64,000 nucleotides of DNA, taken from positions 113,805-177,804 of IMG/VR virus record IMGVR_UViG_3300014205_000177; one strand, given 5' to 3'. Of the stretch, positions 38,298 through 52,294 are shown piece by piece. The stretch comes from a virus. Taxonomy: Duplodnaviria; Caudoviricetes. Below the pieces are notes generated by a model. The model saw nothing but the letters and a program-made list of their open reading frames with translations, was not told the origin of the DNA and made no database searches. The position numbers were made by a program, and so were the translations under genes. How positions within the stretch are numbered: position 1 is the stretch's first letter; each line of letters starts with the position of its first letter.

Positions 38298-38324
38298 TTG
38301 ATTGAAAACTTAATATAATAAAAT

Positions 38325-38417: not shown

Positions 38418-38497
38418 GTCTTCCGGCTTCGTAAAAACGAATATAATAACATAGCAATATGTGAAGCGGATATTCCCAGCCGGTTTTATTTTAGAAT

Positions 38498-38575
38498 GGG
38501 GCAATAGCTCAGTTGGCTTAGAGCATCTCGCTTGCACCGAGAAGGTCCAGGGTTCAATTCCCTGTTGTTCCACCA
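38498..38575 (+). tRNA. tRNA-Ala(UGC)
   Basis: Cloverleaf, loop CTTGCAC, G3:U70, CCA. Confidence 0.93.
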
Positions 38576-38583
38576 TTTTACGT

Positions 38584-38661
38584 TGGCTAGTAGCTCAGTT
38601 GGTAGTAAGCGTTCGCCTGTTAAGCGAAAGGTCGCACGTTCGAACCGTGCCTAGCCAGCCA
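38584..38661 (+). tRNA. tRNA-Asn(GUU)
   Basis: Loop CTGTTAA, CCA. Confidence 0.92.
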
Positions 38662-38709
38662 ATTTTATTAACAATGTGTGTTAATATTATTCTAGTTTAA
38701 AATAATTTT

Positions 38710-38795
38710 TGCAGGGATAAGTCTCGGAAGACTGGTAAGGCTCATAACCTTATGCGGAAACGCTGAGTGGGTTCGACTCTCCACCCCTGCTACCA
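38710..38795 (+). tRNA. tRNA-Met(CAU), initiator-like, extra variable hairpin
   Basis: Loop CTCATAA; 1:72 mismatch; GCGGAAACGC V-arm. Confidence 0.75.
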
Positions 38796-38863
38796 TTTCT
38801 CTACCAGAGGTAGGGATATTATAAAGGGTTATCGCTGTCCCCGTCTGACGAAACAGCGAACGT

Positions 38864-38939
38864 GGCTCGTATGGATAATGGCTATCCACAAGTATCATAA
38901 ACTTGTTTAAGGTGGGTTCGATTCCCCCACGAGCTACCA
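38864..38939 (+). tRNA. tRNA with CAU anticodon (Met or Ile2)
   Basis: Stem CAAGT/ACTTG, loop ATCATAA, CCA. Confidence 0.75.
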
Positions 38940-38948
38940 ATTTAAAAC

Positions 38949-39024
38949 GGGGATGTAGCTCAATTAGGAGAGCATCGGTCTGTCGAACCGAAGGTCGTGG
39001 GGGCAGAACCCATCATCCTCGCCA
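38949..39024 (+). tRNA. tRNA-Asp(GUC)
   Basis: Loop CTGTCGA, G73, CCA. Confidence 0.9.
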
Positions 39025-39032
39025 TTTTATAT

Positions 39033-39109
39033 GCTCGGTTAGCTCAATTGGCTAGAGCACTTGGTTTACACCCAAGTTGTTACAGATTCGAGTTCTGTAC
39101 CGAGTACCA
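39033..39109 (+). tRNA. tRNA-Val(UAC)
   Basis: Loop TTTACAC, CCA. Confidence 0.92.
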
Positions 39110-39118
39110 GTTTTATAT

Positions 39119-39208
39119 GGGGAGGTAGCTCAGAGGCAGAGCGTCGGGCTAGGTGGTGAAAACCACCGAATCTGAAGGTCGCTGGTTCGAATCCAGCCTT
39201 CCCCACCA
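39119..39208 (+). ncRNA. tRNA-like RNA with a hairpin inserted in the anticodon loop
   Basis: Intact acceptor, D and T arms and CCA; loop reads CTA-GGTGGT-GAAA-ACCACC-GAA. Confidence 0.8.
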
Positions 39209-39213
39209 GTTTC

Positions 39214-39287
39214 GTTGCGAGATAATATAATTTTTAGTACCCCATTGTGGATGGGAAATGTTGGTGAAAATCCAACTCTCGCAACCA
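39214..39287 (+). tRNA. tRNA-His(GUG), degenerate
   Basis: G-1, loop TTGTGGA; D-loop lacks GG; T-loop atypical. Confidence 0.55.
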
Positions 39288-39312
39288 TTTTTTAAAAAAA
39301 TAGAAAAGTAAT

Positions 39313-39340
39313 TTGTTTTTGAAGTAAATTATGCTATATT
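39313..39340 (+). promoter_or_regulatory. Internal promoter in tRNA array 1
   Basis: TTGTTT-N16-TATATT with TGC. Confidence 0.6.
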
Positions 39341-39431
39341 TTAAAGTATAAGAAAGTTGTTGGATAATTACCAACTGAACTCTGAGGTTATGGGAATATC
39401 AGAGAGAGATTAACAAATAACCCGTACATAT

Positions 39432-39505
39432 CAGAGCGTGAGATAATGGTAGTCGTCCTTCCTTGGAAGAAGGGGGTGGTCGTTCGAATCGACCCGCTCT
39501 GACCA
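39432..39505 (+). tRNA. tRNA-Pro(UGG)
   Basis: C1:G72, loop CTTGGAA, CCA. Confidence 0.9.
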
Positions 39506-39555
39506 TTTTAAATTTAACCATAGTGGTTTAAATAAAAAATAACATAGGAAAAGTT

Positions 39556-39762
39556 ATGGAAGAAGATTTAATTCCTGAAATTTGGGAAAACGGAAAGGGG
39601 AGAACAAAACCCTTTGTAAAAAGTAAGAAAAACAATTATGAAGAACCCAAAAAAAGATTTGGGATAATTGGTAAGAAAAAAGTAAAAGAAAATAGAGAAC
39701 TTCAAGATATAGATGAAGTAGAAGATAAAATAAGTTCTTCTATACTTAGTAAAATTAAATAA
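39556..39762 (+). CDS. Small Lys-rich hypothetical protein
   Basis: 68 aa; AGGA RBS. Confidence 0.6.
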   Translation: MEEDLIPEIWENGKGRTKPFVKSKKNNYEEPKKRFGIIGKKKVKENRELQDIDEVEDKISSSILSKIK

Positions 39763-39767
39763 TATGT

Positions 39768-39843
39768 GTCCGGTTCTTCTAGTTGGACAGGATAAGGGAC
39801 CTTCACTCCCTCGACACGGGTTCGAATCCCGTACCGGATACCA
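39768..39843 (+). tRNA. tRNA-Glu(UUC), C33
   Basis: Stem AGGGA/TCCCT, loop CCTTCAC, CCA. Confidence 0.85.
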
Positions 39844-39846
39844 TAA

Positions 39847-39922
39847 AGCCCTGAAGTGTAACGGCTGCACACTTGTCTTTGACACAAGTAGACTTATGGT
39901 TCAACTCCATGCAGGGCTGCCA
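39847..39922 (+). tRNA. tRNA-Gln(UUG)
   Basis: Loop CTTTGAC, G73, CCA. Confidence 0.88.
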
Positions 39923-39930
39923 GTTTTCGA

Positions 39931-40005
39931 GTTCCCTTAATTCAGAGGAAGAAATTATCGGTCCTAACGATAAAGTCGCTGGTTCAAGTCCAGCAGGGAA
40001 CGCCA
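39931..40005 (+). tRNA. tRNA-Arg(CCU)
   Basis: Stem TATCG/CGATA, loop GTCCTAA, CCA. Confidence 0.82.
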
Positions 40006-40019
40006 GTTTTGTTTTATGT

Positions 40020-40052
40020 GTGCCAGTAGCTGAGAGGATAGAGCAGTGGTTT
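40020..40052 (+). pseudogene. tRNA 5'-half remnant
   Basis: GTGCCAG-TAGCTGAGAGGATAGAGCA-GTGGTTT stops at the anticodon loop, just before the endonuclease gene. Confidence 0.6.
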
Positions 40053-40123
40053 AAATTAAATATTTAAGATTGACGTGTGTTCGATTCAATGTTTCGATGG
40101 TATTATATAAAAAGGAGTTTTAT

Positions 40124-41102
40124 ATGAAAGCCATTGAAATAGATTGGAAATTAGTTCAGGAATACCATAATAATGAGCACTGCTTGAGTGATGTCATGAA
40201 AAATTTTAAGGTTTCAAGAGCATCCATAGATACAGCGGTAAAACATGGATGCTTTGTTAAAAAATATTTTAAACAAGAACACACTGAGGAAACAAAGAAG
40301 GCAATATCTGAAAAAAGGAAAAAATGGTTGGCAGACAATCCAGATAAACATGTATGGAAAAGGAAGGGAAAATTCAAATCTGAACCATGCGAAGTATTAA
40401 AGAAAAAAACTTGAAGAAAATGGAGTTAGTTTTTATCCAGAATTTTCACCAATAGAAAGCCATTCATTCTCTTTAGATATAGCTTTTCCAAAAGATAAGT
40501 TTGGCATAGAAATAAATGGAAACCAGCACTATGAAAGAGACGGTAGACTAAAGGATTATTATCAGAAACGACATGATTTAATCGTTGCAGATGGTTGGGA
40601 ACTATTGGAAATACCTTGTGCTATGGTTTGGAACAAGGAGTTTATTGATGGTTTAATAGAATCACTTAAAACTAAGGTCTGCGGTTTTGAGTATAAAGAA
40701 CAAGTGGAAGAATATAATAAAAAGAAAAGAGAAAAGTATATTTGCCCGACTTGTGACAATAGAAAGAGCAAAAACTCGATGCTTTGTAGAAAGTGTTCTT
40801 TTAAGCCGAAAGTAAAAAAGCAAGTAGTCAGAATTTTTGTAAATAAAAACCATATGTGTCCGAATTGTAAAAACGCTAAAGATGCAAAAGCGGTTTTATG
40901 TAAGGAATGCTTTAGTTTGTCAAAGAGGAAAGTTGAAAGACCAAATAAGGAAGAGTTGGAAAAATTGGTCAAAGAGTTATCGATGACTAAGATAGGCAAG
41001 ATGTTCGGAGTTAGCGACAATGCCGTAAAAAAATGGTGTAAAATTTATGAAATAGAATTAGGAGACAGACGAGGGTACTGGGCAAAGATTTATGCAAGGT
41101 GA
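40124..41102 (+). pseudogene. Frameshifted Vsr/DUF559-like homing endonuclease (NUMOD3-like, nuclease, Zn fingers, HTH)
   Basis: Removing one A from the A7 run at 40403-40409 joins both ORFs through LDIAFP...IEINGNQH...GWELL. Confidence 0.75.
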
Positions 41103-41110
41103 TTTAACAT

Positions 41111-41185
41111 GGTCTCATAGCTTAACGGATAAAGTTCGTGTCTTCTAAACACGCCATTCGGGTTCAATTCCCGATGAGACCTCCA
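41111..41185 (+). tRNA. tRNA-Arg(UCU)
   Basis: Stem CGTGT/ACACG, loop CTTCTAA, CCA. Confidence 0.88.
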
Positions 41186-41206
41186 ATTTTAAAAAAGGAA
41201 TTTTTT

Positions 41207-41464
41207 ATGAAAAGAGCTAGACCTATTTACTCACTAGGGCAGTATTATAGAAACAGGGGCACTCATAAACGAGAAGAAGCAATAAGCGAAGACGAAGAAC
41301 ATAGTCCATTAACTAGAGCCAAGAGAGAATCAAATTTACCTGACTCTTGGGATACAAAAAAGATTTGCAGACCTAAGACATGGAAGAGGAGATGCAAGAA
41401 AGCAAAACAGTGGATGAAACATTTTATGACAGATTTAGAAAAGAAATTTATAAGAGGAGAATAA
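41207..41464 (+). CDS. Basic hypothetical protein
   Basis: ATG 41207 with AAGGA RBS; RAKR..LPDSWD...WK motif. Confidence 0.7.
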   Translation: MKRARPIYSLGQYYRNRGTHKREEAISEDEEHSPLTRAKRESNLPDSWDTKKICRPKTWKRRCKKAKQWMKHFMTDLEKKFIRGE

Positions 41465-41467
41465 ACG

Positions 41468-41572
41468 ATGAGTGGAAAAGGATGTAAGAGAAGACCTCAA
41501 CAGATAAGCGAAGAAAAAATGCAAAGCAATTGGGAAAAAGCATTTAACAAAGGAAATAAAAAGAAAAAATGA
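41468..41572 (+). CDS. Small phage protein (MSGKGCKRRP...NWEKAF)
   Basis: 34 aa; GAGGAG RBS; ATGA overlap with the next gene. Confidence 0.65.
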   Translation: MSGKGCKRRPQQISEEKMQSNWEKAFNKGNKKKK

Positions 41573-42156
41573 GTGAAGTATTGGTTTTAAACAAGCTATG
41601 GCAACCAGTTAAAGTTATTAACGTATGGGATGCAATTTGCAAAGTATATCAAGATAAAGCTTCTTTTTTAGATGCTAATTATGTTATGCATAATTGGGAA
41701 TCTTGGGTTATATCATGGAAAGATGCAGAAATTCATGCAAAAGATATGATACATGGTTCATCTTGTTCTATTAGAAAACCAACTGTAATTGTTTTAAAAA
41801 ACTACAGTGGGTATGTTTTTAAAAAACCAAAGATGAGTAGGCGTAACATTTACTTAAGGGATGCAAACCAGTGCCAATATTGTGGTATAACATACGAAAC
41901 AAAGAAACTAAATATAGACCATATTATACCTAAATCTCATGGGGGAAGAACTCAATGGACTAATGTAGTAGTTTCATGTATAAAATGTAATAGTTTTAAA
42001 GCAGATAGAACTCCTGAACAGGCAGGAATGAAACTTTTAAGAAAGCCAAAAGCTCCTACCTGGAAAGATGTTAACATGGAAGCTTTTCAAAGAAATTATT
42101 CTAATTGGCACGGTCTGTTAAATGACATGTACTGGAATGTTACTTTAGAAAAATAG
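41569..42156 (+). CDS. HNH endonuclease (McrA-like)
   Basis: VLVLN...RD..CQYCG...DHIIPKSHGG...N...C..CN..K. Confidence 0.9.
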   Translation: MSEVLVLNKLWQPVKVINVWDAICKVYQDKASFLDANYVMHNWESWVISWKDAEIHAKDMIHGSSCSIRKPTVIVLKNYSGYVFKKPKMSRRNIYLRDANQCQYCGITYETKKLNIDHIIPKSHGGRTQWTNVVVSCIKCNSFKADRTPEQAGMKLLRKPKAPTWKDVNMEAFQRNYSNWHGLLNDMYWNVTLEK

Positions 42157-42235
42157 AATTATAAGATTGACAAATAAAAAAAAGATGCTATACTTAATAA
42201 GTGTAGCATTTTTTATATATAAATAAGGAGATAAA

Positions 42236-42622
42236 ATGAGTGAAAAAATTGTAATGGGTAAAATGTTTTCTATTGAAAATAAAAACAAAAAAACCGGTGA
42301 AAATGAAAAATACATAGCCGTTTATGTAGAAGACGAAAGCGGAAATGAAGAAACCGAAAGGTGCTTACTATTTACGGAAATAGAGCTTTCCGACATGGAA
42401 AAAGTTGTACTTCCATTTGTTAAGAATACAATGAAAAAAGGAAGAATTTATTCTGTTATTATAGACAAAAAAGAAACAAATCTTTTAAAAGTAGAAACAG
42501 AACGTAATGGAAATATTATTTTTAGGGTTTCTAATTCTCAACTTAAATCGGCAGAAGAAAGGGTTAAAAGAAATCCAGAAGATGTTGAAAAGAAAGATTT
42601 TATAACTGATTTACTTGACTAA
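42236..42622 (+). CDS. Hypothetical protein
   Basis: 128 aa; AAGGAG RBS; promoter upstream. Confidence 0.75.
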   Translation: MSEKIVMGKMFSIENKNKKTGENEKYIAVYVEDESGNEETERCLLFTEIELSDMEKVVLPFVKNTMKKGRIYSVIIDKKETNLLKVETERNGNIIFRVSNSQLKSAEERVKRNPEDVEKKDFITDLLD

Positions 42623-42631
42623 CAAGGAAAT

Positions 42632-42865
42632 ATGATGAAATTAAAAATAAAATGTCCAGAATGTAAAAGGGAACATCTTGTCACTATATCAAATGAACAA
42701 CCTATTATGGAAATTAAAAAGATAAAATGTTTATCTTGTAGTATAATTATAAAATATAGAATAGGAATAAAAAAAGAAAATACCAGTGATAGTTCTTCTA
42801 AACTTTTTGATAGTATGGGAATGTTTGGAGATGTTTTTAAAAATATTATGGGGAGTAAAAGATGA
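42632..42865 (+). CDS. Zn-ribbon protein
   Basis: CPEC...CLSC. Confidence 0.65.
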   Translation: MMKLKIKCPECKREHLVTISNEQPIMEIKKIKCLSCSIIIKYRIGIKKENTSDSSSKLFDSMGMFGDVFKNIMGSKR

Positions 42866-43188
42866 TAGGTACAATAGAAGTGGTAAATAAATATACATAT
42901 GAAGGTGATTATATAGATATAATGAGAGGAACTCCACTTGGTAATCCATATATAGTTTCTGATTCAATGAGCAGAGAACAATCAGTTTTAAATTTTTATA
43001 AATATTTCAGAAAAGAATTTTTTAAAAAAACAGATGTATATAATGCAATAATGGAGATAGTTGAAAAGGTTAAGTCTGGAGAAAATGTAAAAATTAAATG
43101 TTGTTGTAAACCAAAATTATGCCATGGCGATATTATAAAAATTGCAATAGAAAGTATTTTAGAAAAACAAATTAGAAATAATACTTGA
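42862..43188 (+). CDS. DUF4326-like protein
   Basis: IMRGTPLGNPY...CCCKPKLCHGDII. Confidence 0.8.
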   Translation: MIGTIEVVNKYTYEGDYIDIMRGTPLGNPYIVSDSMSREQSVLNFYKYFRKEFFKKTDVYNAIMEIVEKVKSGENVKIKCCCKPKLCHGDIIKIAIESILEKQIRNNT

Positions 43189-43343
43189 TTTTTAAAAATA
43201 TTATGCTATAGTTAATATTATAAAATTTCTTATTATGAGAAATTAAAAAAAAGAGGTAAAAAATGATGTAGAATAATAAATCTCCATAACGTGTTTCTTT
43301 GTTTTAATGATTTTAATAATAATAATAAACAAAGGAGAGTATA
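43185..43343 (+). promoter_or_regulatory. Promoter, amber-interrupted leader and RBS-sequestering hairpin
   Basis: TTGATT-N16-TATAGT; GAGGT RBS; ATG ATG TAG AAT AAT AAA TCT CCA TAA at 43263-43289; 43294-43304 pairs with 43327-43337. Confidence 0.65.
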
Positions 43344-43718
43344 ATGAATACTTTAAGAAACACGAACGAAGAAGTAATAGATTTGAAGAAAGAGGAATAT
43401 AAGAAGAATATTAAAAGGATGAAGGCTAACGTTAAACTGGTGTCAAATAACATAAAAGAAATGAAAGAAGAATTAAAGACTAAGCAAAAAAAAGGTGATT
43501 ATAAAAGTTGGTCTTTAATGAGTGATTTAAATTCTTATAAAAATGATGTCAGAAATACACATATAGCTTATGCTATGGCAAAAGGGAGAGTCTACCAAAA
43601 AATTGAGTCAAAAGTTAGAGATAACAATGAACCAAACTGGTGGGCAATAAAGGCAAATATAGAAAATTTCTTCGGAAAGAAATTTGAAATTGTTGACTTC
43701 AAGGTAAACTTTCTATGA
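43344..43718 (+). CDS. Hypothetical protein upstream of Pth2-like gene
   Basis: 124 aa; RNTHIAYAMAKGRVYQKIE motif. Confidence 0.75.
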   Translation: MNTLRNTNEEVIDLKKEEYKKNIKRMKANVKLVSNNIKEMKEELKTKQKKGDYKSWSLMSDLNSYKNDVRNTHIAYAMAKGRVYQKIESKVRDNNEPNWWAIKANIENFFGKKFEIVDFKVNFL

Positions 43719-44017
43719 AAAAGGTATTTATAATAACCAGGAAAGACCTTGAAAATGGAGCAAGAATAGTTCAGTCTGTTCATTCATTCCATGAGTTGGC
43801 AAGAAAAAATGAAGAAATATTGAATCAGGTATATAATACAATATGTTACAAAATAGAAGACGAACTATCATTAAAAGAAGTTTCTGAGAGGATAGCAAGT
43901 AATCTAAACGAAAAAGAATATGCATGGTTCAGAGAAACAGATTACAATAATCAATTGACCTCTTTTGCAGTCTTTACAAACAAGAAAGAGCTGTTTAAAG
44001 GTTTAAGATTGGCGTAA
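43715..44017 (+). CDS. Peptidyl-tRNA hydrolase 2-like protein
   Basis: IITRKDL..GARIVQSVH...FRETDYNNQLTSFA...LF..LRL pattern. Confidence 0.7.
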   Translation: MKKVFIITRKDLENGARIVQSVHSFHELARKNEEILNQVYNTICYKIEDELSLKEVSERIASNLNEKEYAWFRETDYNNQLTSFAVFTNKKELFKGLRLA

Positions 44018-44021
44018 TAAA

Positions 44022-44051
44022 TAGGGAGGAGTAAATCCTCCCATTATTTTA
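44022..44051 (+). terminator. Intrinsic terminator
   Basis: GGGAGGA/TCCTCCC stem with T-rich tail. Confidence 0.65.
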
Positions 44052-44067
44052 TAAAAAATGGAGAAAA

Positions 44068-44538
44068 ATGAGCAATAAAGAAAATTATTTTTTAGACCTA
44101 GCACTTAGAAGTGCTCATCAAGGTTCCTGTACAAGAAGAAACTACGGAGCAATTATAGTAAACGAGAAAAAGCATATAGTAGCAACTGGTTATACAGGAA
44201 ATGTATCAGGAGAAGAGCACTGTAATAGTCTTGGAATTTGCTGGAGAAAAGAGAATAATATTCCAAGTGGAACCTCCTACGAACGCTGTAAATCAATACA
44301 TGCCGAACAGAATGCGTTAATTCAAGCCGGTAAAGAATCTTATGGTTCTGTAATATATATTGCCGGATATGATGTAGAAACAGGAAGGGAAATAGCTGGT
44401 ATACCTTGCTTTATTTGTGCAAAACTAATTGTTAATGCTGGAATATCTTCTATTATATATAGAGATACATCTTTAGTGTTCAGGAAGGGTCCAGTTGCCC
44501 ATTATCGTGAACTAGAAAGAAAAATATTTGGAAAATAA
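44068..44538 (+). CDS. dCMP deaminase (ComEB-like)
   Basis: HAEQNA and PCFIC zinc motifs. Confidence 0.88.
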   Translation: MSNKENYFLDLALRSAHQGSCTRRNYGAIIVNEKKHIVATGYTGNVSGEEHCNSLGICWRKENNIPSGTSYERCKSIHAEQNALIQAGKESYGSVIYIAGYDVETGREIAGIPCFICAKLIVNAGISSIIYRDTSLVFRKGPVAHYRELERKIFGK

Positions 44539-44550
44539 TAGTTTATGGTG

Positions 44551-44578
44551 TTGTTTTTTTATAAAGTAATGCTATAAT
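44551..44578 (+). promoter_or_regulatory. Promoter of tRNA array 2
   Basis: TTGTTT-N16-TATAAT with TGC. Confidence 0.75.
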
Positions 44579-44718
44579 ATAATCAACAGCCACCGATATA
44601 GAAATATACGGTAATGTATAGCTCATCTGCCAGGTGTAGAGTGAGTTTCCGAGAATGACGATGACAAAATTCAAAGTTGTTCTCCGTTTTTAAAAAAAAA
44701 TAAAAGGAATTATATTAA

Positions 44719-44790
44719 ATGATGAACGTTTTTAAAAAGATTAGTTTTGGTCGTTGGGGTTTTAAACCTCACGTCCGTCTATTCTTGTAA
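44719..44790 (+). CDS. Attenuator leader peptide 2 (MMNVFKKISFGRWGFKPHVRLFL)
   Basis: AAGGA RBS; codons match all 8 array 2 tRNAs. Confidence 0.82.
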   Translation: MMNVFKKISFGRWGFKPHVRLFL

Positions 44791-44816
44791 CGTTTATCGT
44801 TAGTTGTTGGAGAAGT

Positions 44817-44850
44817 AGGCGGACTAGAAATAGTTCGCCTTTTTGTTTTT
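44817..44850 (+). terminator. Attenuator terminator 2
   Basis: AGGCGGACTA-GAAA-TAGTTCGCCT plus TTTTGTTTTT; alternative pairing with 44773-44785. Confidence 0.85.
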
Positions 44851-44852
44851 AT

Positions 44853-44928
44853 GGGTTGATAGCAAACGTGGTCAATGCATACCGTTGAAGCCGGTACTAC
44901 TTCGGTTCAATTCCGAATCAACCCACCA
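44853..44928 (+). tRNA. tRNA-Phe(GAA)
   Basis: Loop TTGAAGC, CCA. Confidence 0.88.
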
Positions 44929-44938
44929 GTTTATGTGA

Positions 44939-45029
44939 GCAAGGTTGTCTTAGCGGCTTGAGAAACCGACTTTTAATCGGTCAGAGGGTAATGCCTCGTA
45001 GGTGGGTTCGACTCCCACACCTTGCACCA
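44939..45029 (+). tRNA. tRNA-Lys(UUU) with long variable arm
   Basis: Stem ACCGA/TCGGT, loop CTTTTAA, V-arm GAGG/CCTC, CCA. Confidence 0.82.
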
Positions 45030-45040
45030 TTTTATAGTAT

Positions 45041-45125
45041 GCGTCGATGTCATAGCGGTTGTGAGGCTGACTCTTAATCAGTGAGAGAAATCTCTAGGTG
45101 GGTTCAACTCCCACTCGGCGCACCA
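45041..45125 (+). tRNA. tRNA-Lys(CUU) with long variable arm
   Basis: Loop CTCTTAA, V-arm GAGA-GAAA-TCTC, CCA. Confidence 0.82.
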
Positions 45126-45137
45126 AGTTTTTTGTGT

Positions 45138-45211
45138 ATGTCTATAGTTCAATAGTAGAACGGGAGTCTCCAAAACTCTTGACGAGGGGGCAGTACCTTC
45201 TAGACATGCCA
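45138..45211 (+). tRNA. tRNA-Trp(CCA)
   Basis: Loop CTCCAAA, G73, CCA. Confidence 0.88.
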
Positions 45212-45220
45212 GTTTTATAT

Positions 45221-45296
45221 GCGCTGTTAGCTCAGTTGGAAGAGCCCAAAAATACGAATTTTGAGGTCGGGGATTCGAATTCTCCACGGCGCACCA
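45221..45296 (+). tRNA. tRNA-Arg(ACG)
   Basis: Stem CAAAA/TTTTG, loop ATACGAA, CCA. Confidence 0.88.
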
Positions 45297-45303
45297 TTTT
45301 CAT

Positions 45304-45379
45304 TGGCGTATCATATAACGGTCAATTATGTGAGACTGATATTCTCATCACCAAGGTTCAACTCCTTGTACGCCAACCA
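45304..45379 (+). tRNA. tRNA-Ile(GAU)
   Basis: Loop CTGATAT, CCA. Confidence 0.87.
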
Positions 45380-45388
45380 GTTATACAT

Positions 45389-45464
45389 ATTCGGTTAGTT
45401 TAGCGGCTAGAACAATACGTTGACATCGTATAAATCATGGGTTCGATTCCCATACCGAATACCA
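45389..45464 (+). tRNA. tRNA-Val(GAC)
   Basis: Loop TTGACAT, CCA. Confidence 0.88.
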
Positions 45465-45472
45465 GTTTTCAT

Positions 45473-45546
45473 GCGAATATAGTACAGTAGCAGTATTTGA
45501 CGTTGCCAACGTTAGGACGAGGGTGCAATTCCCTCTATTCGCACCA
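45473..45546 (+). tRNA. tRNA-Gly(GCC)
   Basis: Loop TTGCCAA, CCA. Confidence 0.85.
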
Positions 45547-45610
45547 TTTTTTGCAACGAAAAATATAATCTTTATGTTGCAAAACCAAGATATTGTGCTA
45601 TACTATCAAT

Positions 45611-45734
45611 GGCGGTTTAGAGAAAGGTTCATCGCCCTCTAACAAGGGAGGGATTGCAGTAGATTCACCGTGGAAGAAAAGTACATCAGTGAAGGAACCA
45701 ATCCAATGTTTTTTCGATAAAACAATCGCCACCA
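45611..45734 (+). ncRNA. Structured RNA with tRNA-like ends
   Basis: GGCGGTT/AATCGCC-A-CCA; T-arm-like GTTTT-TTCGAT-AAAAC; promoter just upstream. Confidence 0.55.
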
Positions 45735-45792
45735 TTTGACATTTATAAAAATCATGCTATTGTACCTCAACAAACTAAAAAGGAGATATGCA

Positions 45793-46191
45793 ATGTGTAT
45801 CAAAATCAAGGCGATGGAAAATGGAGTAATGATTCAAAGCAGAGAAGAATATGAAGATATAATGGATATTCTATTGGATGCAGGTCTTCGGACAGTGAGT
45901 GGAAAATATTTTGGAGAATGTGACTGGTTTAATGAAACCGGAACCGAAACAGTTATAGATTTGAGAAATCTGGAGTCTATTGCATATGGTGAATATCAGT
46001 ATTTTATTGATAATGATATCCCGGTTTGTAATTTCCAGGATTTTCTTACAGAACAGGGTTTAACACCAAACGGATGCATTAGCGGTGAACAACAGATATT
46101 TATGCGTAGGGCAAAGTTGAAATGTCCAAAAATGAAAAAGAAAGAAATCAGAAGACTTGCAAAGGCAATCGTGAGGGAGATGAACAAATGA
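45793..46191 (+). CDS. Hypothetical protein
   Basis: AGGAG RBS; promoter upstream. Confidence 0.7.
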   Translation: MCIKIKAMENGVMIQSREEYEDIMDILLDAGLRTVSGKYFGECDWFNETGTETVIDLRNLESIAYGEYQYFIDNDIPVCNFQDFLTEQGLTPNGCISGEQQIFMRRAKLKCPKMKKKEIRRLAKAIVREMNK

Positions 46192-46769
46192 AAGCAAGAA
46201 CTAAAAAAGAAGTAGTGCAAATAGGATTATTAGTTGATGAGAGTGGTTCTATGTATAGCCTCTCTGGTGATACAATCGGTACGGTTAATGGTTTCATTAA
46301 AGACCAGAAAAAAGTAAAAGGAGAAGCAGAAATAACAATAGCTTCATTTAATGATAACTATAAACTCATTAAAGATAGAGAAGATATCAAAAATATTGAA
46401 GAAATTACCAGCGAAGATTATTCTCCATCTGGAATGACGGCATTATATGATTCTATTATGAAAATAATTTCTTCCATAGAAGAGACAAAAGCTAAAAAAG
46501 CGATAATCGCTATTATTACAGATGGAATGGAAAACTCAAGTATTGAATATAAAGATTCAAGTGTAATTAAAGAAAAAATACAGCAGAAACAAAAAGACGG
46601 GTGGCAGATATTATTTCTAGCTGCAAATATTGACGAAAAGGCAGTGGGTGCAAGTTTCGGAATAAATGCAATGTACACTCAGGCGTTTACTCCTACAGCA
46701 GATGGCGTAATAGGTGCTATGTCATATACATCGAGATGCGTTAGTGATTACAGGGGCAATAATGATTAA
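46188..46769 (+). CDS. vWA-domain protein
   Basis: MIDAS DESGSM, GMTALYD, ITDGMENSS. Confidence 0.88.
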   Translation: MKARTKKEVVQIGLLVDESGSMYSLSGDTIGTVNGFIKDQKKVKGEAEITIASFNDNYKLIKDREDIKNIEEITSEDYSPSGMTALYDSIMKIISSIEETKAKKAIIAIITDGMENSSIEYKDSSVIKEKIQQKQKDGWQILFLAANIDEKAVGASFGINAMYTQAFTPTADGVIGAMSYTSRCVSDYRGNND

Positions 46770-46865
46770 AATAGGGATAACACAGAGAGAGGTGATGCGG
46801 CTTTAGATTTAAAATGGTTGTGTTTATTGGAAATAAATAAAAATCAAAAAAAGTTTTAAAACTAT

Positions 46866-46893
46866 TTGTTTTTATCGAAAGTAATGCTATAAT
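46866..46893 (+). promoter_or_regulatory. Promoter of tRNA array 3
   Basis: TTGTTT-N16-TATAAT with TGC. Confidence 0.75.
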
Positions 46894-46932
46894 ATAGATG
46901 TGTAAGATAAATAAATTAAAAAGGAAATCATC

Positions 46933-47007
46933 ATGAACAAGTTGTTATCAAGTCATTCACTATCGCTCTCATCCTATATAGGATGCGAGATAGGTCTGCT
47001 TTGGTAA
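46933..47007 (+). CDS. Attenuator leader peptide 3 (MNKLLSSHSLSLSSYIGCEIGLLW)
   Basis: AAGGA RBS; Ser/Leu-rich codons match array 3 tRNAs. Confidence 0.82.
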   Translation: MNKLLSSHSLSLSSYIGCEIGLLW

Positions 47008-47034
47008 TACTTTTTAGATATTCCCAGTTTTTAA

Positions 47035-47071
47035 AAAGAGCAGACCGTAAAAAGTCTGCTCTTTGTTTTTG
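47035..47071 (+). terminator. Attenuator terminator 3
   Basis: AAAGAGCAGAC/GTCTGCTCTTT plus GTTTTT; alternative pairing with 46993-47002. Confidence 0.85.
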
Positions 47072-47080
47072 TTGTGATAT

Positions 47081-47155
47081 GCTCCAGTAACATAATGGCT
47101 AGTGTAGGTGACTTCCACTCACCCAATGAGAGTTCGATTCTCTCCTGGAGTACCA
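47081..47155 (+). tRNA. tRNA-Gly(UCC)
   Basis: Loop CTTCCAC, CCA. Confidence 0.88.
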
Positions 47156-47163
47156 GTTTATAT

Positions 47164-47261
47164 GGAAGAATAAGCCGAAAGATTCTGGGTAGCGGCAACG
47201 GTCTTGAAAACCGAAGGCTCTAAAACAGGGCGTGTGGGTTCGAATCCTACTTCTTCCGCCA
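47164..47261 (+). tRNA. tRNA-Ser(UGA)
   Basis: Loop CTTGAAA, long V-arm, G73. Confidence 0.88.
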
Positions 47262-47303
47262 GTTTAGACTAGAAATAGTTGATGTTGTTTGAAAATTATA
47301 TAT

Positions 47304-47376
47304 GTCCCGTGAGCCAGATGGAGAGGCGATTGTCTGCAAAACAATGGAAACAGTTCGATTCTGTAACGGGACTCCA
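47304..47376 (+). tRNA. tRNA-Cys(GCA)
   Basis: Loop CTGCAAA, U73, CCA. Confidence 0.87.
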
Positions 47377-47384
47377 GTTTATAA

Positions 47385-47476
47385 GGAGATGTAATCCTAA
47401 AGGCAAGGAAAGAGTTTGCTAAACTCTTAGTAACCGAGAAATCGGCGTGGGTTTTCAAGACACCCCATCTCCGCCA
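47385..47476 (+). tRNA. tRNA-Ser(GCU)
   Basis: Loop TTGCTAA, long V-arm, G73. Confidence 0.82.
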
Positions 47477-47550
47477 GTTTTAAGTAGACAACTCACTATG
47501 TCATAAAAGTACCAAGAGGGCGACATAGTAATCAGAATAGAATATTATTT

Positions 47551-47626
47551 CCGCAGGTAGCTCAGGGGTCAGAGCTCTATTCTTATAAAGTAGCTGTCAG
47601 TGGTTCAATTCCACTCCTGCGGACCA
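47551..47626 (+). tRNA. tRNA-Ile(UAU)
   Basis: Stem CTATT/AGTAG, loop CTTATAA, CCA. Confidence 0.85.
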
Positions 47627-47637
47627 TTTTAAAATAA

Positions 47638-47725
47638 GGGTGTTGTCCCCCACGGAAGTCTGTAAAACTTTTGACATATGTAAGTGGGGTGGCGTCAAGT
47701 GGTTCAATTCCACCAATACCCACCA
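47638..47725 (+). tRNA. tRNA-Tyr(GUA), non-canonical fold
   Basis: Loop CTGTAAA; 8-bp acceptor, 4-bp T stem; no normal D-arm. Confidence 0.65.
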
Positions 47726-47752
47726 TTTTTAGGCGACTTAGCGGTCGTCTTT

Positions 47753-47883
47753 GAGCGCACAACGCCTAGTAATCTAAGTGGCATCCAAAGTTGCTCTTGG
47801 TGCTTAGAGGGCTTGTATTTCGAGTGTGGTTTGCAACAGCCCACATGAGAAGCATATAGGTATTGCCGGAAGATTGTGTGCTC
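47753..47883 (+). ncRNA. Unidentified structured RNA
   Basis: Closing stem GAGCGCACAA/TTGTGTGCTC enclosing two hairpins. Confidence 0.5.
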
Positions 47884-47893
47884 TAAATTTTAT

Positions 47894-47984
47894 GGAAGTT
47901 TGCCGGAGATGGATTATCGGCTCTCATTGGAAATGAGATGGTCACTTAAGTGGCACGAAGATTCGAATTCTTCAACTTCCGCCA
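47894..47984 (+). tRNA. tRNA-Ser(GGA)
   Basis: Loop TTGGAAA, long V-arm, G73. Confidence 0.88.
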
Positions 47985-47992
47985 GTTTTAAT

Positions 47993-48125
47993 GGGGGTGA
48001 AATTTATTCGATTATGGTTTCGCAATGTGGTAGCTTGGAAGCAATGGTAGCAAATGCACTTGAAAACTCTACCATCCACACTTAGGAAACCGTAAGACCT
48101 GGGTTAAATCCCAGCACTTCCACCA
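47993..48125 (+). ncRNA. Minimal tmRNA-like RNA, 133 nt
   Basis: GGGGGTG/CACTTCC-A-CCA with G3:U70; ATTCGA D-loop analogue; helix TTATGGTTTC/GAAACCGTAA; GAC then T-arm. Confidence 0.7.
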
Positions 48126-48130
48126 GTTTT

Positions 48131-48305
48131 GGTAAACGTGAAGACGAAGATTGAGGAATGGTTTGTTTTGGACGAACGCCCCGTTATCCATGGGGAGAAG
48201 ACATAAAACTCAGCACCAAGTCATTTCGTGGTGGCGTTGCCAGAGAAGTTATGGGTACGATTGTGGCTCGTATTTAGACCGGAGCATTACCGGTACGTCA
48301 CCCCA
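48131..48305 (+). ncRNA. Structured RNA with tRNA-like 3' end
   Basis: GGTAAACGT/ACGTCACC-CCA; ACCGG-N7-CCGGT; several internal hairpins. Confidence 0.45.
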
Positions 48306-48315
48306 ATTTTTATGT

Positions 48316-48392
48316 GCGCCTATAGGAGAATTGGCATATCCGTCTGGTTTAGGCCCAGAATTTTCTCGGTTCGAGTCCGAGTAGGCGTACCA
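48316..48392 (+). tRNA. tRNA-Leu(UAG), short variable loop
   Basis: Loop TTTAGGC, CCA. Confidence 0.85.
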
Positions 48393-48447
48393 CATTTTTT
48401 AGACTAGAAATAGTCGACGTTGTTTGAAAAAGTATATATGAAAATAT

Positions 48448-48724
48448 CCCCATGTGGCGGAATGGCAGACGCAACGGACTTATTAATTTGAGCCTTATAT
48501 TGGAAACTTTATAAGTGGACATGGCTAATTCGGTGAATCCTTTAATATGGTAACGCCGAGCTATCGAAAGAGAGTGTAGAGACTTTACACCATGTGCCTA
48601 AGTCTATGAAGATATGGCAAAGACAAAGTCCAGACCACGCAAGAAGAGAGTAGTGAAAACTATAGTGGTACGAAAATTCGTCGCCCGTTAGGGCGTGAGG
48701 GTTCGACTCCCTCCTTGGGGACCA
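48448..48724 (+). tRNA. tRNA-Leu(UAA) split by a group I intron
   Basis: Exons 48448-48481 and 48673-48724 rebuild loop CT-TAA-AA. Confidence 0.9.
48482..48672 (+). mobile_element. Group I intron (trnL-UAA type), 191 nt
   Basis: Inserted U^AA; P AATTCGGTGAA, Q AACGCCGAGC, R GTAGAGACT, S AAGACAAAGTCC; terminal G. Confidence 0.9.
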
Positions 48725-48802
48725 AATATTTATGTTATAGTTATTTTTTTGTGTTATTTGCATCTGCCATGTTATATTATAATAAAACAGCGGGAGTAAA
48801 TA

Positions 48803-49717
48803 ATGAAATATACAAAAGAGATGCTAGAAGAGGCAATTAAAAATAATGTTAGTTTTGCGGGAGTTCTAAAAAGTTTTGGATTACATCCGTCCGGTGGTAG
48901 TCATAGACTAATAAAATCAAAAGCATTAAGTTTTGGAATAAGTACGGAACATTTTCTTGGAAAGGCATCAAATTGCGGAAGTAGGTACAAAGGTGGGTTA
49001 GAAAAAATAAGTTTTTCAGATGTGTTAGTGTACGATAGAAGAAATGGAATGAGGGAGAGTGCCTCTAAACTAAAAAGGTCTATGCTGGAAAGCGGGATAG
49101 AATATAAGTGCGAAAAGTGTAACAATGATGGTGTCTGGATGGATGGTTTTGTGTCTTTGGAGGTTCATCACAAAAATGGAGATACTTTTGACAACACAAA
49201 AGAAAACCTTGTATTTATATGTCCCAATTGTCACAGTCAAACTGACAACTTTCGTGGAAGAAATAAGGTTGAAAAAGATATTCAACAAATAAGAACAGAA
49301 GAGGAGGTTGTTGCAGCACTTCTAAAGAGTAAAAATATAAGACAATCACTTATAGAACTAAATTTGGCTCCATACGGAGGTAATTACGATAGGATTAAAA
49401 GAGTAATGATAAAAAAGGATATTGAGTTCAATAAAAAAGAAAAGAAAACTGCAACATGTCCGTCGTGCGGAAATAAAAAAGATTACTCCAGCGCAGAATG
49501 TAGAAAGTGCGCAAGTATAAAGAGAGGTTTGGCAGAAAGAAAAGTTGAACGTCCATCAAAAGAAGGCTTGGAGAAAATGATTGCTGAACTTCCAATGACA
49601 AAGATTGGAAAAATGTTTGGAGTAAGTGATAATACTATTAGAAAATGGTGTAAGAATTACGGAATAGAATTAGGTAATAGATTAGGATACTGGACGAAGA
49701 TAAAATATAGCAAATAA
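48803..49717 (+). CDS. HNH homing endonuclease with C-terminal Zn finger and HTH
   Basis: CEKC...LEVHHKNGD..DNTKENL...CPNCHSQT. Confidence 0.9.
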   Translation: MKYTKEMLEEAIKNNVSFAGVLKSFGLHPSGGSHRLIKSKALSFGISTEHFLGKASNCGSRYKGGLEKISFSDVLVYDRRNGMRESASKLKRSMLESGIEYKCEKCNNDGVWMDGFVSLEVHHKNGDTFDNTKENLVFICPNCHSQTDNFRGRNKVEKDIQQIRTEEEVVAALLKSKNIRQSLIELNLAPYGGNYDRIKRVMIKKDIEFNKKEKKTATCPSCGNKKDYSSAECRKCASIKRGLAERKVERPSKEGLEKMIAELPMTKIGKMFGVSDNTIRKWCKNYGIELGNRLGYWTKIKYSK

Positions 49718-49721
49718 ATAT

Positions 49722-49798
49722 GGTCTCGTAACCGAATTGGCATAGGTATCGTGCCCAAACCACGAGTTTTATGGGTTCGACCCCCATCGAGACCACCA
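49722..49798 (+). tRNA. tRNA-Leu(CAA), C33, short variable loop
   Basis: Stem TCGTG/CACGA, loop CCCAAAC, CCA. Confidence 0.78.
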
Positions 49799-49979
49799 TT
49801 TAGATTTGAAATTACTTGTTTATATGCTATATTAATAAAAAATATTGAAGAAGTAAAAGAAATATTATATAAAATTTTAAATCAAAGATGGTAACTTATC
49901 CGTAATCTGTTGTAGATTCTTGAATGAGAGGAGATAGGGACAAGGATAAGTTATTATTTTTAATGATAAAGGAGAGAAT

Positions 49980-50147
49980 ATGAACTATATAGATGTAATT
50001 ATTGATAAACACGAAGAAAAAATTAAAGCAGTAAAAGAATCTTCTTCATGTAAAGGTGATTTTGCTAGAAAACTTTTAGAAAAAGGAATTGTACCTTATT
50101 TTTCTGATGGAATAAAAATTTATGAAAAACTTTATAAATCTTCTTGA
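49980..50147 (+). CDS. Small hypothetical protein, 55 aa
   Basis: AAGGAG RBS; MNYIDVIIDKH... Confidence 0.55.
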   Translation: MNYIDVIIDKHEEKIKAVKESSSCKGDFARKLLEKGIVPYFSDGIKIYEKLYKSS

Positions 50148-50209
50148 TTTTAATAAAAAGTGTGCTATAATATAGATGTAATGAAAATTACGAGTTGTTT
50201 AAATTTTTT

Positions 50210-50283
50210 GAGGAAGCGGTTAGATGAGTTACTTCAATGATTTTAAATCTTTGCCAAAAAACGCTTGTCTTATTATTCTCCTC
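50210..50283 (+). ncRNA. Y RNA-like RNA, short
   Basis: GAGGA/TCCTC closing stem; ATGAGTTACTTCAA...GCTTGT shared with 50498-50616; upstream of Ro60. Confidence 0.7.
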
Positions 50284-50293
50284 ATACATTTTT

Positions 50294-50488
50294 ATCTGTT
50301 ATATGGATTCCTCGCCACTGTTACAGTAGTGGAGGTTGAACGTTCATACGTTCCTAGGAGGTTGTGGTTAAATACTGCTCAGGTGTGGATTAAATAGGTC
50401 TGTAAATATTAAACATTAATGCCTATTTTAACATGGTTGTATATTGCGCAATATATGACATAAGCAGTCAGAATTTTAACTAACAGAT
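50294..50488 (+). ncRNA. Unidentified multi-stem RNA between the Y RNAs
   Basis: ATCTGTTA/TAACAGAT closing stem with several internal hairpins. Confidence 0.5.
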
Positions 50489-50497
50489 TACATTTTT

Positions 50498-50616
50498 GTT
50501 GGGTAGTGTAGATATGAGTTACTTCAAAGCTCAATGGTAGAGCATTTCTCTTGAAAAGAAAATGTTACTGGTTCAAATCCAGTTGATAATAAAGCTTGTA
50601 TCGCTTTTCTCCCAAC
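50498..50616 (+). ncRNA. YrlA-type Y RNA with tRNA-like domain
   Basis: GTTGGG/CCCAAC stem enclosing D-arm AGCTCAATGGTAGAGC, anticodon-like arm and T-arm CTGGTTCAAATCCAG; no acceptor CCA. Confidence 0.82.
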
Positions 50617-50740
50617 TCTTATTTTACGTCAACCATGTGTTGAATGTAGTGAACCTGTCATGGTACAGGTTTTGAGTTGGGTGGGGTTCTCGCATACCTC
50701 ACCCATTTTTTTTACAATTTATGCGAAAGGAAAAAGGAAA

Positions 50741-52294
50741 ATGACTATCAACGCAAAAAGGGAAAAGGTAGAAATGTCTCACAAAAATTTTATGAATGGA
50801 AAGTCTTATAATGTATCTCCATTTATAAGATTACAAATGGTAGCAGCTTCATGTTTTATGGGAGAACCTCAATATTACAAAAAAGCCGGAACAAAATATT
50901 CAACTATTGAATATATTGAAAAAGTTCTTGGGTCTCATTCAACAAACGATTGGAAAGGACTTAATTCAGTAGAAATTATAGAAAAAACTATTGATGAATG
51001 TTTAAGTATTGATGTTGAAAAAACTCTTATAATTGCAGAATCATTAAGGGTTGAAGACTATATGAGAGAAACACCACAAGTAATTTTAGTTAGAGCAGCA
51101 GTCCATAAAAATCAAAAGGGAACCGGTTTAGTAAATAAATATGGACTAAGAATTTGTATTCGTGGAGATGAACCAGCAACCGGACTAGCTTATCTATTGA
51201 AAGCTTTTGGAAGAAAATCAATTCCTAATTCCCTTAAAAAAGTTTGGAAAAGTGTTCTAGAAAGCCTGACCGATTATGAAATTGCAAAATATAAGATGGG
51301 TTCAAGAGAAGTTCGTACTATTGATGTTGTTCGTATTTGTCATGCTAATTCTGCATCCATTAATAAGTTAATGAGTGGAAATGCTAAAGAATTTAACACT
51401 TATCGTTCTATTATCTCTAATAGTGATAATTCAACATCTGAAGCAAGAGAAATTAACTGGAGAAAGGTTGTAGAAAAGTCTGGACATATGGCTTTATTGA
51501 GAAATATTCGTAACTTCGTTAAAAACGGAATACCTGTTTCTTATTTTTCAAATAAATTGAAGAATGGAGTTTTGGAAGGAAAGCAATTTCCATTTAGATA
51601 CTACAATGCAATGATTGAAAATAATGGTAATGGATATGTTAAAAACTGTTTGGAAGAATGTATGGATATTGCAATTAATAATATGCCAAAGTTCGAAGGT
51701 CGTGTAATGTCATTATGTGATAATTCAGGTTCTGCAACAAGTTCAAAATTATCTACACTTGGAAATACAAGTGTTTCTACAGTTGCTAACCTTATGGGTA
51801 TCATTACTGCAAAATGTTTCAGTAAAGGTGGACAATTGGGTCTTTTCGGAGATAAATTATCTATTGATGATGTAAATCCATCAAGAGGAGTTCTGTCAAC
51901 TCTTCAAACTATAGAAGAAAAGTCAAGATGGGTTGGGGGTGGAACAGAACATGGAGCATGGTTATTTTGGGATTATGCAACTAAAAACAACGAACATTAT
52001 GATTATGTTTTTGTTTATAGTGACATGCAAGCAGGACATGGTGGTCTTTATGGTAGCGATAATAGTTATATAAATTATATATATCCTGGAACTAGAAATT
52101 ATATAGATATTCCAAAATTAATATCTGAATATAGAAAGAAAGTAAACCCAAATGTTAAGGTATTTCTTGTACAAGTTGCAGGATATGAAGATACATTGAT
52201 TCCTGAATTCTATAAAAACACATATATTCTTGGTGGATGGAGTGAAAATATTCTTAAATTCGCAAAGAAAATGGAACAAATAAAACAATATTAA
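50741..52294 (+). CDS. rsr: Ro60/TROVE-domain RNA-binding protein with vWA domain
   Basis: GEPQYY, MRETPQ, HMALLRNIRN, QFPFRY, DNSGS, SDMQ; adjacent Y RNAs. Confidence 0.9.
   Translation: MTINAKREKVEMSHKNFMNGKSYNVSPFIRLQMVAASCFMGEPQYYKKAGTKYSTIEYIEKVLGSHSTNDWKGLNSVEIIEKTIDECLSIDVEKTLIIAESLRVEDYMRETPQVILVRAAVHKNQKGTGLVNKYGLRICIRGDEPATGLAYLLKAFGRKSIPNSLKKVWKSVLESLTDYEIAKYKMGSREVRTIDVVRICHANSASINKLMSGNAKEFNTYRSIISNSDNSTSEAREINWRKVVEKSGHMALLRNIRNFVKNGIPVSYFSNKLKNGVLEGKQFPFRYYNAMIENNGNGYVKNCLEECMDIAINNMPKFEGRVMSLCDNSGSATSSKLSTLGNTSVSTVANLMGIITAKCFSKGGQLGLFGDKLSIDDVNPSRGVLSTLQTIEEKSRWVGGGTEHGAWLFWDYATKNNEHYDYVFVYSDMQAGHGGLYGSDNSYINYIYPGTRNYIDIPKLISEYRKKVNPNVKVFLVQVAGYEDTLIPEFYKNTYILGGWSENILKFAKKMEQIKQY

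Follow-up and report, generated by a model that had tools for sequence, protein, structure and literature searches.

Among described systems, the closest to the element discussed here are the multivalent leader-peptide attenuators, such as those of ilvGMEDA (Ile/Leu/Val) and thr (Thr/Ile) (PMC1183508). In these leaders, a promoter-proximal short ORF contains several kinds of regulatory codons, and the position of the ribosome controls which of two mutually exclusive hairpins, antiterminator or terminator, will form, resulting in negative feedback; the phage leaders appear to be alike in all of these respects. Attenuation may also act on a component of the decoding machinery itself, as it would in the phage, and does so in pheST and other aminoacyl-tRNA-synthetase leaders and in the histidine leader before the hisS paralogues of bacilli (PMC2965389). 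T-box riboswitches, which are common in low-GC Gram-positive bacteria, likewise combine sensing of tRNA status with a choice between terminator and antiterminator.

Why do phages carry tRNA genes? The question is more than 50 years old, and the regulation of tRNAs in phages is essentially unstudied. Phage tRNAs replace host tRNAs lost to anticodon nucleases, and thus act as counter-defence (PMC10264068, PMC11464382). This is the likely biological setting for the present locus. However, both studies cover the role of the tRNAs rather than the control of their expression, and no report of leader-peptide or codon-sensing inducible control of tRNA genes was found in the literature searched.

The window analysed here is a stretch of 64,000 nucleotides (positions 113,805 to 177,804 of the IMG/VR virus record IMGVR_UViG_3300014205_000177). 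It forms part of a 177.8-kb contig of 30% G+C (C2 of a 4.0-Mb assembly) that encodes a large terminase, a major head protein, a sigma factor, a Ro/TROVE-like protein and at least 30 tRNAs; the contig represents the genome of an uncultured phage of the jumbo type that had been binned together with a bacterial MAG. The tRNA genes of the window are all-plus-strand and grouped into three arrays (38325-41185, 44853-45546 and 47081-49798), and a terminator scan placed an intrinsic terminator directly 5' of each. (In the tRNA region as a whole, the scan returned 20 terminator-like sites against 7.5 expected.) The stretch at 44551-44850, upstream of the eight-tRNA array 2, is likely to be a ribosome-mediated (leader-peptide) transcription attenuator that gates the array by sensing the decoding of the array's own codons. 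This is an inference from sequence alone, with nothing experimental behind it.

Architecture of unit 2 and its sister units

The elements of the locus, all on the + strand, are as follows.

44551-44578 (+): promoter 2, with -35 TTGTTT (44551-44556), a 16-nt spacer and an extended -10 TGcTATAAT (44570-44578); a consensus match only, with no mapped transcription start site
44651-44691 (+): hairpin and T-run within a ~110-nt insert between promoter 2 and leader ORF 2 (fold and sequence)
44703-44709 (+): Shine-Dalgarno-like AAAGGAA, 9 nt upstream of the leader ORF 2 ATG
44719-44790 (+): leader ORF 2, ATG ATG ... TAA, 23 codons plus TAA
44728-44763 (+): predicted sensing window of the leader, codons 4-15, 11 of 12 of them own-array codons (nascent-RNA folding with a ribosome mask)
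44756-44770 (+): small hairpin within leader ORF 2, just 5' of the antiterminator strand (folds); identical in sequence in the relative L034
44772-44787 (+): antiterminator 5' strand, in the last ORF codons, 18-23 (RNAduplex)
44809-44825 (+): antiterminator 3' strand, overlapping the 5' arm of the terminator (fold and RNAduplex)
44817-44850 (+): intrinsic terminator of unit 2, with hairpin 44817-44840 (10 pairs, 5 G-C; dG -14.7) and T-run 44841-44850
44853-45546 (+): tRNA array 2, Phe-GAA, Lys-UUU, Lys-CUU, Trp-CCA, Arg-ACG, Ile-GAU, Val-GAC, Gly-GCC
38089-38294 (+): sister unit 1, with promoter 38089-38116, leader ORF 38160-38237, antiterminator 38223-38240 x 38261-38274 and terminator 38267-38294; array 1 follows at 38325-41185
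46866-47064 (+): sister unit 3, with promoter 46866-46893, leader ORF 46933-47007, antiterminator 46992-47003 x 47036-47045 and terminator 47035-47064; array 3 follows at 47081-49798

An earlier note on this locus had proposed a leader ORF and attenuator at 44719-44850, and its coordinates and counts proved correct. The pairing that it described between 44773-44785 and 44811-44824 was also recovered (duplex dG -19.3 to -19.5), as was the competing terminator said to end 2 nt before tRNA-Phe (T-run to 44850, tRNA from 44853). Over its full extent, 44772-44787 x 44809-44825, the antiterminator duplex has a dG of about -19.4, which only 4 of 300 codon-shuffled versions of the ORF matched. In the unobstructed region this duplex is the structure of minimum free energy, and it overlaps the 5' arm of the terminator by 9 of 10 nt. 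The terminator is reached from promoter 2 ahead of any gene, and the distance from its hairpin to the tRNA is just 12 nt, with no space for another promoter. (In unit 3, the terminator ends 16 nt upstream of the tRNA.) The same promoter layout, TTGTTT-N16-TGnTATAAT, precedes leaders 1 and 3, and similar promoters precede the leaders of related phages. Shine-Dalgarno-like sites are found before 12 of the 13 leaders examined, the exception being leader 1 of the window (W1), which has GGTGA.

The ~110-nt insert (44585-44700) contains a terminator-like 9-bp hairpin (44651-44684) followed by a T-run (44687-44691). The close relative L034 lacks the insert and has only ~40 nt between promoter and ATG. 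Conceivably, the insert represents a small RNA or a second checkpoint, and might limit or otherwise control entry. The small hairpin at 44756-44770 could be a pause hairpin, a possible function that is only inferred. Pairing of the 1:2 type is seen in the full-length fold of unit 2 and is absent from its nascent-RNA fold; a strong 1:2 anti-antiterminator was not found in the leader folds.

Seven of the eight tRNAs in array 2 are called by ARAGORN. The eighth, Trp-CCA at 45138-45208, is missed by that program; it matches the Rfam tRNA model with 48.5 bits, and its CCA anticodon loop was read from the fold. (ARAGORN at -ps80 was left out because it gave many false intron-bearing tRNAs.) A caveat is that several of the array tRNAs have unusual structures, and there is no proof that they function. 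Long variable arms, which in bacteria are normally limited to Leu, Ser and Tyr tRNAs, are found in Thr-UGU (38325-38417, 93 nt), a tRNA with a CAU anticodon (38711-38791, 81 nt), Lys-UUU (44939-45029, 91 nt) and Lys-CUU (45041-45125, 85 nt). An Arg-ACG-like tRNA (39119-39208) has a 15-nt hairpin inserted in its anticodon loop (11 nt in L034, 6839-6929), which ARAGORN calls an intron. The Leu-UAA tRNA (48448-48724) is split by an insert of 191 nt, which in L028 (15165-15503) measures 253 nt; there is no Rfam group I intron match at E<=1. A Tyr-GUA-like tRNA with an odd D arm was missed by both tRNA finders, and its codons occur in leader 3; this tRNA and two further structured stretches without explanation occupy 47637-47727, 47735-47890 and 47990-48125 in the array 3 region.

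Several other features of the surrounding DNA were observed in passing. Downstream of array 2, the interval 45577-45792 begins with a promoter-like TTGCAA-16-TGcTATACT, followed by a structured leader of ~130 nt that has no Rfam match and a second promoter-like site (45736-45763), before an ORF at 45793. Just after array 3, matches of ~80 nt to the Rfam tmRNA model occur in related contigs (L029 16518-16598, L028 15607-15687 and L024 6452-6534); these are likely to be tRNA-like domains only. A partial tRNA-like element (50524-50586; Rfam tRNA positions 5-66, 53.9 bits) lies directly 5' of the gene for the Ro/TROVE-like RNA-binding protein (phrog_850, 50660-52294). Bacterial Rsr and its tRNA-like Y RNAs show the same arrangement as 50524-52294. 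The large terminase (28316-31345, - strand) has 1009 aa, compared with 576-584 aa in relatives, and probably contains an intein, judging from its length and from the intein and LAGLIDADG domains carried by relatives of similar length. Finally, an ORF of at least 5330 codons (2-15991, - strand) runs off the start of the window.

Leader codons and tRNA content across related phages

Does each leader list the codons of its own array? For leader 2, the earlier note had claimed that 12 of the 13 codons at positions 4-16 are read by array 2 tRNAs, and that every member of the array is represented. Both claims held: under standard wobble the sole exception is AGT, and all 8 of the 8 tRNAs are represented. 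In a test against the codon usage of long ORFs, with strict wobble rules and the start codon excluded, the three leaders of the window matched the three arrays as follows.

Leader 1, 24 codons counted: array 1, 17; array 2, 2; array 3, 2; own-array p 2e-3
Leader 2, 22 codons counted: array 1, 5; array 2, 15; array 3, 4; own-array p 4e-5 (background 0.26)
Leader 3, 23 codons counted: array 1, 3; array 2, 3; array 3, 15; own-array p 3e-5

The tRNA species of the leader's own array are represented at 10/13, 8/8 and 10/10 in leaders 1, 2 and 3, respectively. As an empirical control, all 554 ATG-initiated ORFs of 20-35 codons in the 177.8-kb contig were scored. For every array, the highest-scoring ORF was its own leader, and leaders 2 and 3 each stand alone among the 554 in reaching their matched-codon fraction and their tRNA coverage.

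The following relatives were available for comparison.

G001 (IMG/VR): 175.4 kb, complete, with terminal repeats; TerL 64% identical to that of the window
L028 (ENA): the same phage as L026
L029 (ENA): a 170-kb contig
L034 (ENA): a 144.7-kb contig, with leaders alignable to those of the window
L020: a 4.4-kb fragment with unit 3 only

Because its leaders can be aligned, L034 is taken as the closest relative of the window among those obtained. The clade is rare. There was no match to 44000-46200 in the GenBank phage collection (blastn, distant mode), none in IMG/VR with the dCMP deaminase and the 1051-aa neighbour as queries, and none in JGI metagenomes and GTDB genomes with TerL, whether as a single protein or as an alignment; an exact 20-nt terminator pattern was found in IMG/VR in G001 only. 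Two more distant TerL relatives, L030 (59%) and L031 (44%), have no tRNA arrays beside TerL and are hence uninformative. In an unrelated phage, L013, which has only a VWA gene in common, there is no leader, and plain promoters lie directly 5' of the tRNAs.

Every array examined in the five relatives is preceded by a promoter, a Shine-Dalgarno site, an ORF of 21-33 codons, an antiterminator and a terminator. The leader ORF has been kept open in all five, and ORF, Shine-Dalgarno site and antiterminator are retained across the six phages despite sequence divergence. Own-array codons are enriched in 16 of 16 leaders from the six phages (9-20 matches, compared with 0-13 for other arrays), with per-leader p from 0.05 to 1e-6. 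Fisher's combined value of 4e-29 is overstated, since the leaders share ancestry.

The strongest evidence for the attenuator reading, by the ranking of the analysis itself, is the co-variation of leader codons with relocated tRNAs. When a tRNA gene is found in a different array in another phage, its codon is found in the corresponding leader. The Ile-UAU tRNA and ATA codons occur together in unit 3 of the window and in unit 2 of G001 and L028, and are absent from both arrays and leaders in L029; the Cys tRNA relocates likewise, if less cleanly. The His tRNA and CAY codons are either both present (window, G001 and L020) or both absent (L028 and L029). Glu-UUC has been relocated to array 3 in L029, where leader 3 has five Glu codons and leader 1, unlike all other leader 1s, has none. 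The Gln-CUG tRNA is present in L034, G001, L028 and L029, and CAG codons are found in leader 1 of the first three of these but not of L029; the window lacks both. For four phages, a 2x2 table of tRNA in array j against codon in leader j gives an odds ratio of 9.1 (p=4e-18), and a permutation test, with leaders of the same class exchanged between phages, gives p~0.001. Leader 1 of the window and that of L034 are separated by radical amino-acid changes (D>R, M>T, V>P and P>Q), all of them within array-1 codons, which fits selection on codon identity and not on the peptide.

The stop codons of the leaders call for a separate remark. An amber suppressor-type tRNA with a CUA anticodon is encoded by the phage of the window (G000:C2:18254-18329) and by a relative (G001rc 8843-8918). 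TAG is the stop codon of 6 of 16 leaders, compared with 24 of 208 long ORFs. It is possible that suppression of leader TAG stops overrides the switch.

The predicted RNA switch, its proposed operation and rival readings

In all 16 leaders, the ORF segment that pairs best with the terminator 5' arm is located in the 3' half, at 0.49 of the ORF length or beyond. For 13 of 16, this pairing beats 95% of codon-shuffled ORFs, and in 11 of 16 the antiterminator strand ends no more than 6 nt from the end of the ORF. Compensatory changes are found in the stems: the pair at the base of the terminator 2 stem, A-T in the window, is replaced by G-C in L034, and in terminator 3 the window has G-C at a pair where L034 has A-T. 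Leader 2 exists in two forms, one shared by the window and L034 and the other by G001, L028 and L029, between which concerted changes in the ORF strand and in both arms of the terminator (5' and 3') preserve the two alternative helices. (This covariation was read by hand, since MAFFT aligned the 5' arms of the five leader-2 switches wrongly.) The geometry of leader 2 is different in the latter three phages, where the ORF extends 13-29 nt past the antiterminator strand; by inference, a ribosome at the stop codon would sit between both strands instead of on one of them. These three phages also have, downstream of the leader 3 terminator and ahead of the first tRNA, a second promoter-like site of the TTGACA/TTGAAA type (G001rc 9800-9845, L028 13575-13619 and L029 15060-15100), which might allow the switch to be bypassed.

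Nascent RNA was folded as far as the terminator loop, with 29 nt masked to represent the ribosome. Under these conditions, the antiterminator is predicted to form with the A site at codons 1-19 of leader 1, 1-15 of leader 2 and 1-17 of leader 3, and to be blocked when the ribosome is on the last 5-9 codons of the three leaders. In unit 2, accordingly, the terminator 5' arm is paired to the ORF with the A site at codons 1-15 and unpaired to it at codons 16-23. Own-array codons fall in the antiterminator-permissive zone, and non-matching codons mostly in the blocking zone. The antiterminator also forms in the absence of a ribosome, so that the predicted default is ON. In equilibrium folding of the complete leader RNA with a ribosome mask, on the other hand, the terminator is preferred for most stall positions, and the choice must therefore be kinetic, as in known attenuators.

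In the proposed mechanism, transcription would start from promoter 2, and a ribosome would translate the 23-codon leader. If decoding is fast, the ribosome would reach the last codons and cover or wedge apart 44772-44787; with this strand blocked, the terminator at 44817-44840 would fold and transcription would stop 2 nt before tRNA-Phe. A ribosome held at any of codons ~4-15, which would be read by Val-GAC, Phe-GAA, Lys-UUU, Lys-CUU, Ile-GAU, Gly-GCC, Arg-ACG and Trp-CCA, would instead leave the antiterminator strand free to pair with the terminator 5' arm once that is made, and RNA polymerase would continue into array 2. The new tRNAs would then relieve the stall, presumably amounting to negative feedback on the supply of those same tRNAs, separately for each array. 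Absent translation, the antiterminator would form and the array would be ON. Candidate triggers include the destruction of host tRNAs by defence nucleases, an attractive option in the light of recent studies (PMC10264068, PMC11464382), decay of host tRNAs induced by the phage, increased demand in late infection, and amino-acid starvation.

The analysis demonstrates the elements in the sequence, their alternative pairings, the match of each leader's codons to its own array, and co-variation among the relatives. Expression of the array, translation of the leader ORF, its coupling with RNA polymerase, the rise in read-through upon shortage of cognate tRNAs and the natural trigger are inferred. 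The attenuator reading of the earlier note is thus supported at the sequence and comparative level, while the leader translation and tRNA-responsive read-through that it entails stay inferred. Cleavage of tRNA-Lys by PrrC, which the note names, is as a specific trigger likewise inference only; amino-acid starvation or any other slowing of decoding would act equally. Moreover, most sensor codons occur only once or twice, and it is possible that a mild shortage would not hold the ribosome long enough.

This last concern bears on a rival reading in which the machinery is the same and the signal is general translation capacity or amino-acid starvation instead of the loss of particular tRNAs to host defence, making the leaders a timing device that switches the arrays on as translation in the infected cell slows. 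In its favor, a ribosome cannot distinguish a missing tRNA from an uncharged one at the A site, any failure of translation would turn all arrays on, since the antiterminator forms without a ribosome, and each codon is present only once or twice. However, a general sensor would need neither array-specific codon sets nor codons that track relocated tRNAs, and three separately matched leaders suggest separate read-outs, making this reading unlikely. Even less plausible is the view that the terminators merely end or insulate upstream units, that the small ORFs are chance frames, and that the arrays are driven by unrecognised promoters. It is true that the promoter calls are consensus matches only, their number in the window being equal to that in shuffled sequence, and that a second promoter-like site follows the leader 3 terminator in three relatives. 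Nevertheless, terminator-tRNA gaps of 2 nt (unit 2) and 16 nt (unit 3) are too short for a promoter, each of the three leaders ranks first in codon match among the 554 small ORFs, and the ORF, the Shine-Dalgarno site and the antiterminator have been kept in six phages amid divergence. This reading must be considered very unlikely.

Two further alternatives can be all but excluded. If the small ORFs encoded functional micro-proteins whose array-like composition is a coincidence, one could point to a short K-W-F-containing stretch that is common to the leader-2 peptides of G001, L028 and L029. Against this, the radical residue changes between close relatives preserve array membership and not residue chemistry, leaders of the same class are otherwise dissimilar, and the coupling to the terminator 5' arm would be left unexplained. 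Direct binding of tRNAs by the leader RNA, in the manner of a T-box and without translation, would have the precedent that T-box leaders also couple tRNA status to the terminator/antiterminator choice. However, neither a T-box nor any other Rfam cis-regulatory family reaches the gathering score in 36000-52000, and 8 to 14 different codons in one frame following a Shine-Dalgarno site and ATG suit a ribosome and not a single specifier loop. Leader-peptide attenuation that senses the array's own codons thus remains the preferred reading.

Comparison with described attenuators

An Rfam scan of 36000-52000, with the listing opened to E<=1, gave only tRNA-clan hits that reach or approach gathering scores; there was no leader family (Trp, His, Leu, Thr and others) and no T-box. 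(A CsrC-like match at 44694-44857 has 16 bits, far below the cut-off of 61.) A similar layout was found in Caulobacter phage phiCbK (JX100813), which has two blocks of tRNA genes. In block 1, gp083 and an annotated rho-independent terminator precede Pro, Pro, Lys, Lys, Leu x3 and Ser x2, and 9 of 9 tRNAs are represented; in block 2, a 32-codon ORF and an annotated terminator precede Phe, Val, Ile x2, Val, Gln x2 and Gly, with 7 of 7 species represented. This phage belongs to an unrelated lineage with a high-GC host, and one of its two leaders looks leaderless. The likeness is one of layout and of the tRNA species represented. Since phiCbK seemingly has the same layout, the idea may be tested in a standard laboratory phage-host pair.

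A bolder reading is that tailed phages with many tRNA genes share a general, hitherto undescribed control circuit in which each array is gated by a translated catalogue of its codons that gauges, for each codon, whether decoding of what the array provides still works in the infected cell, so that exactly the missing set of tRNAs is induced against tRNA-cleaving immunity or host tRNA decay. The circuit would be modular, with codons added or dropped as tRNA genes join or leave, and would have arisen in several unrelated lineages (the low-GC jumbo-phage clade and the phiCbK-like Caulobacter phages). The balance of the evidence tips only slightly in favor of this generalization.

If the attenuator reading is true, the phage measures decoding capacity and supplies specific sets of tRNAs on demand, linking tRNA arrays to the defence systems that target tRNAs. 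The leader codons would constitute a sequence signature that predicts which odd phage tRNAs are functional and what they decode, and the leaders might offer synthetic biology a compact natural sensor of tRNA supply. Leader-peptide attenuation would also be extended from amino-acid and synthetase genes to tRNA genes.

How, then, does the phage element differ from the described systems? The ilv and thr leaders, which have no sequence or Rfam relationship to the phage leaders, control biosynthetic enzymes with runs of one to three codon types, whereas the phage leaders would control tRNAs with 8-14 codon types, mostly present once or twice. The trp leader differs in another respect, since the phage leader is predicted to be ON without translation. 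Synthetase leaders serve one synthetase with the codons of one amino acid, compared with whole tRNA arrays and a catalogue of their codons in the phage. A T-box, unlike the proposed phage switch, needs no ribosome: its specifier codon and T-box sequence make direct contact with one uncharged tRNA. By inference from sequence, it is likely that the element functions like the known multivalent leader-peptide attenuators, and that its new part is the control of tRNA genes by a leader of many codons.
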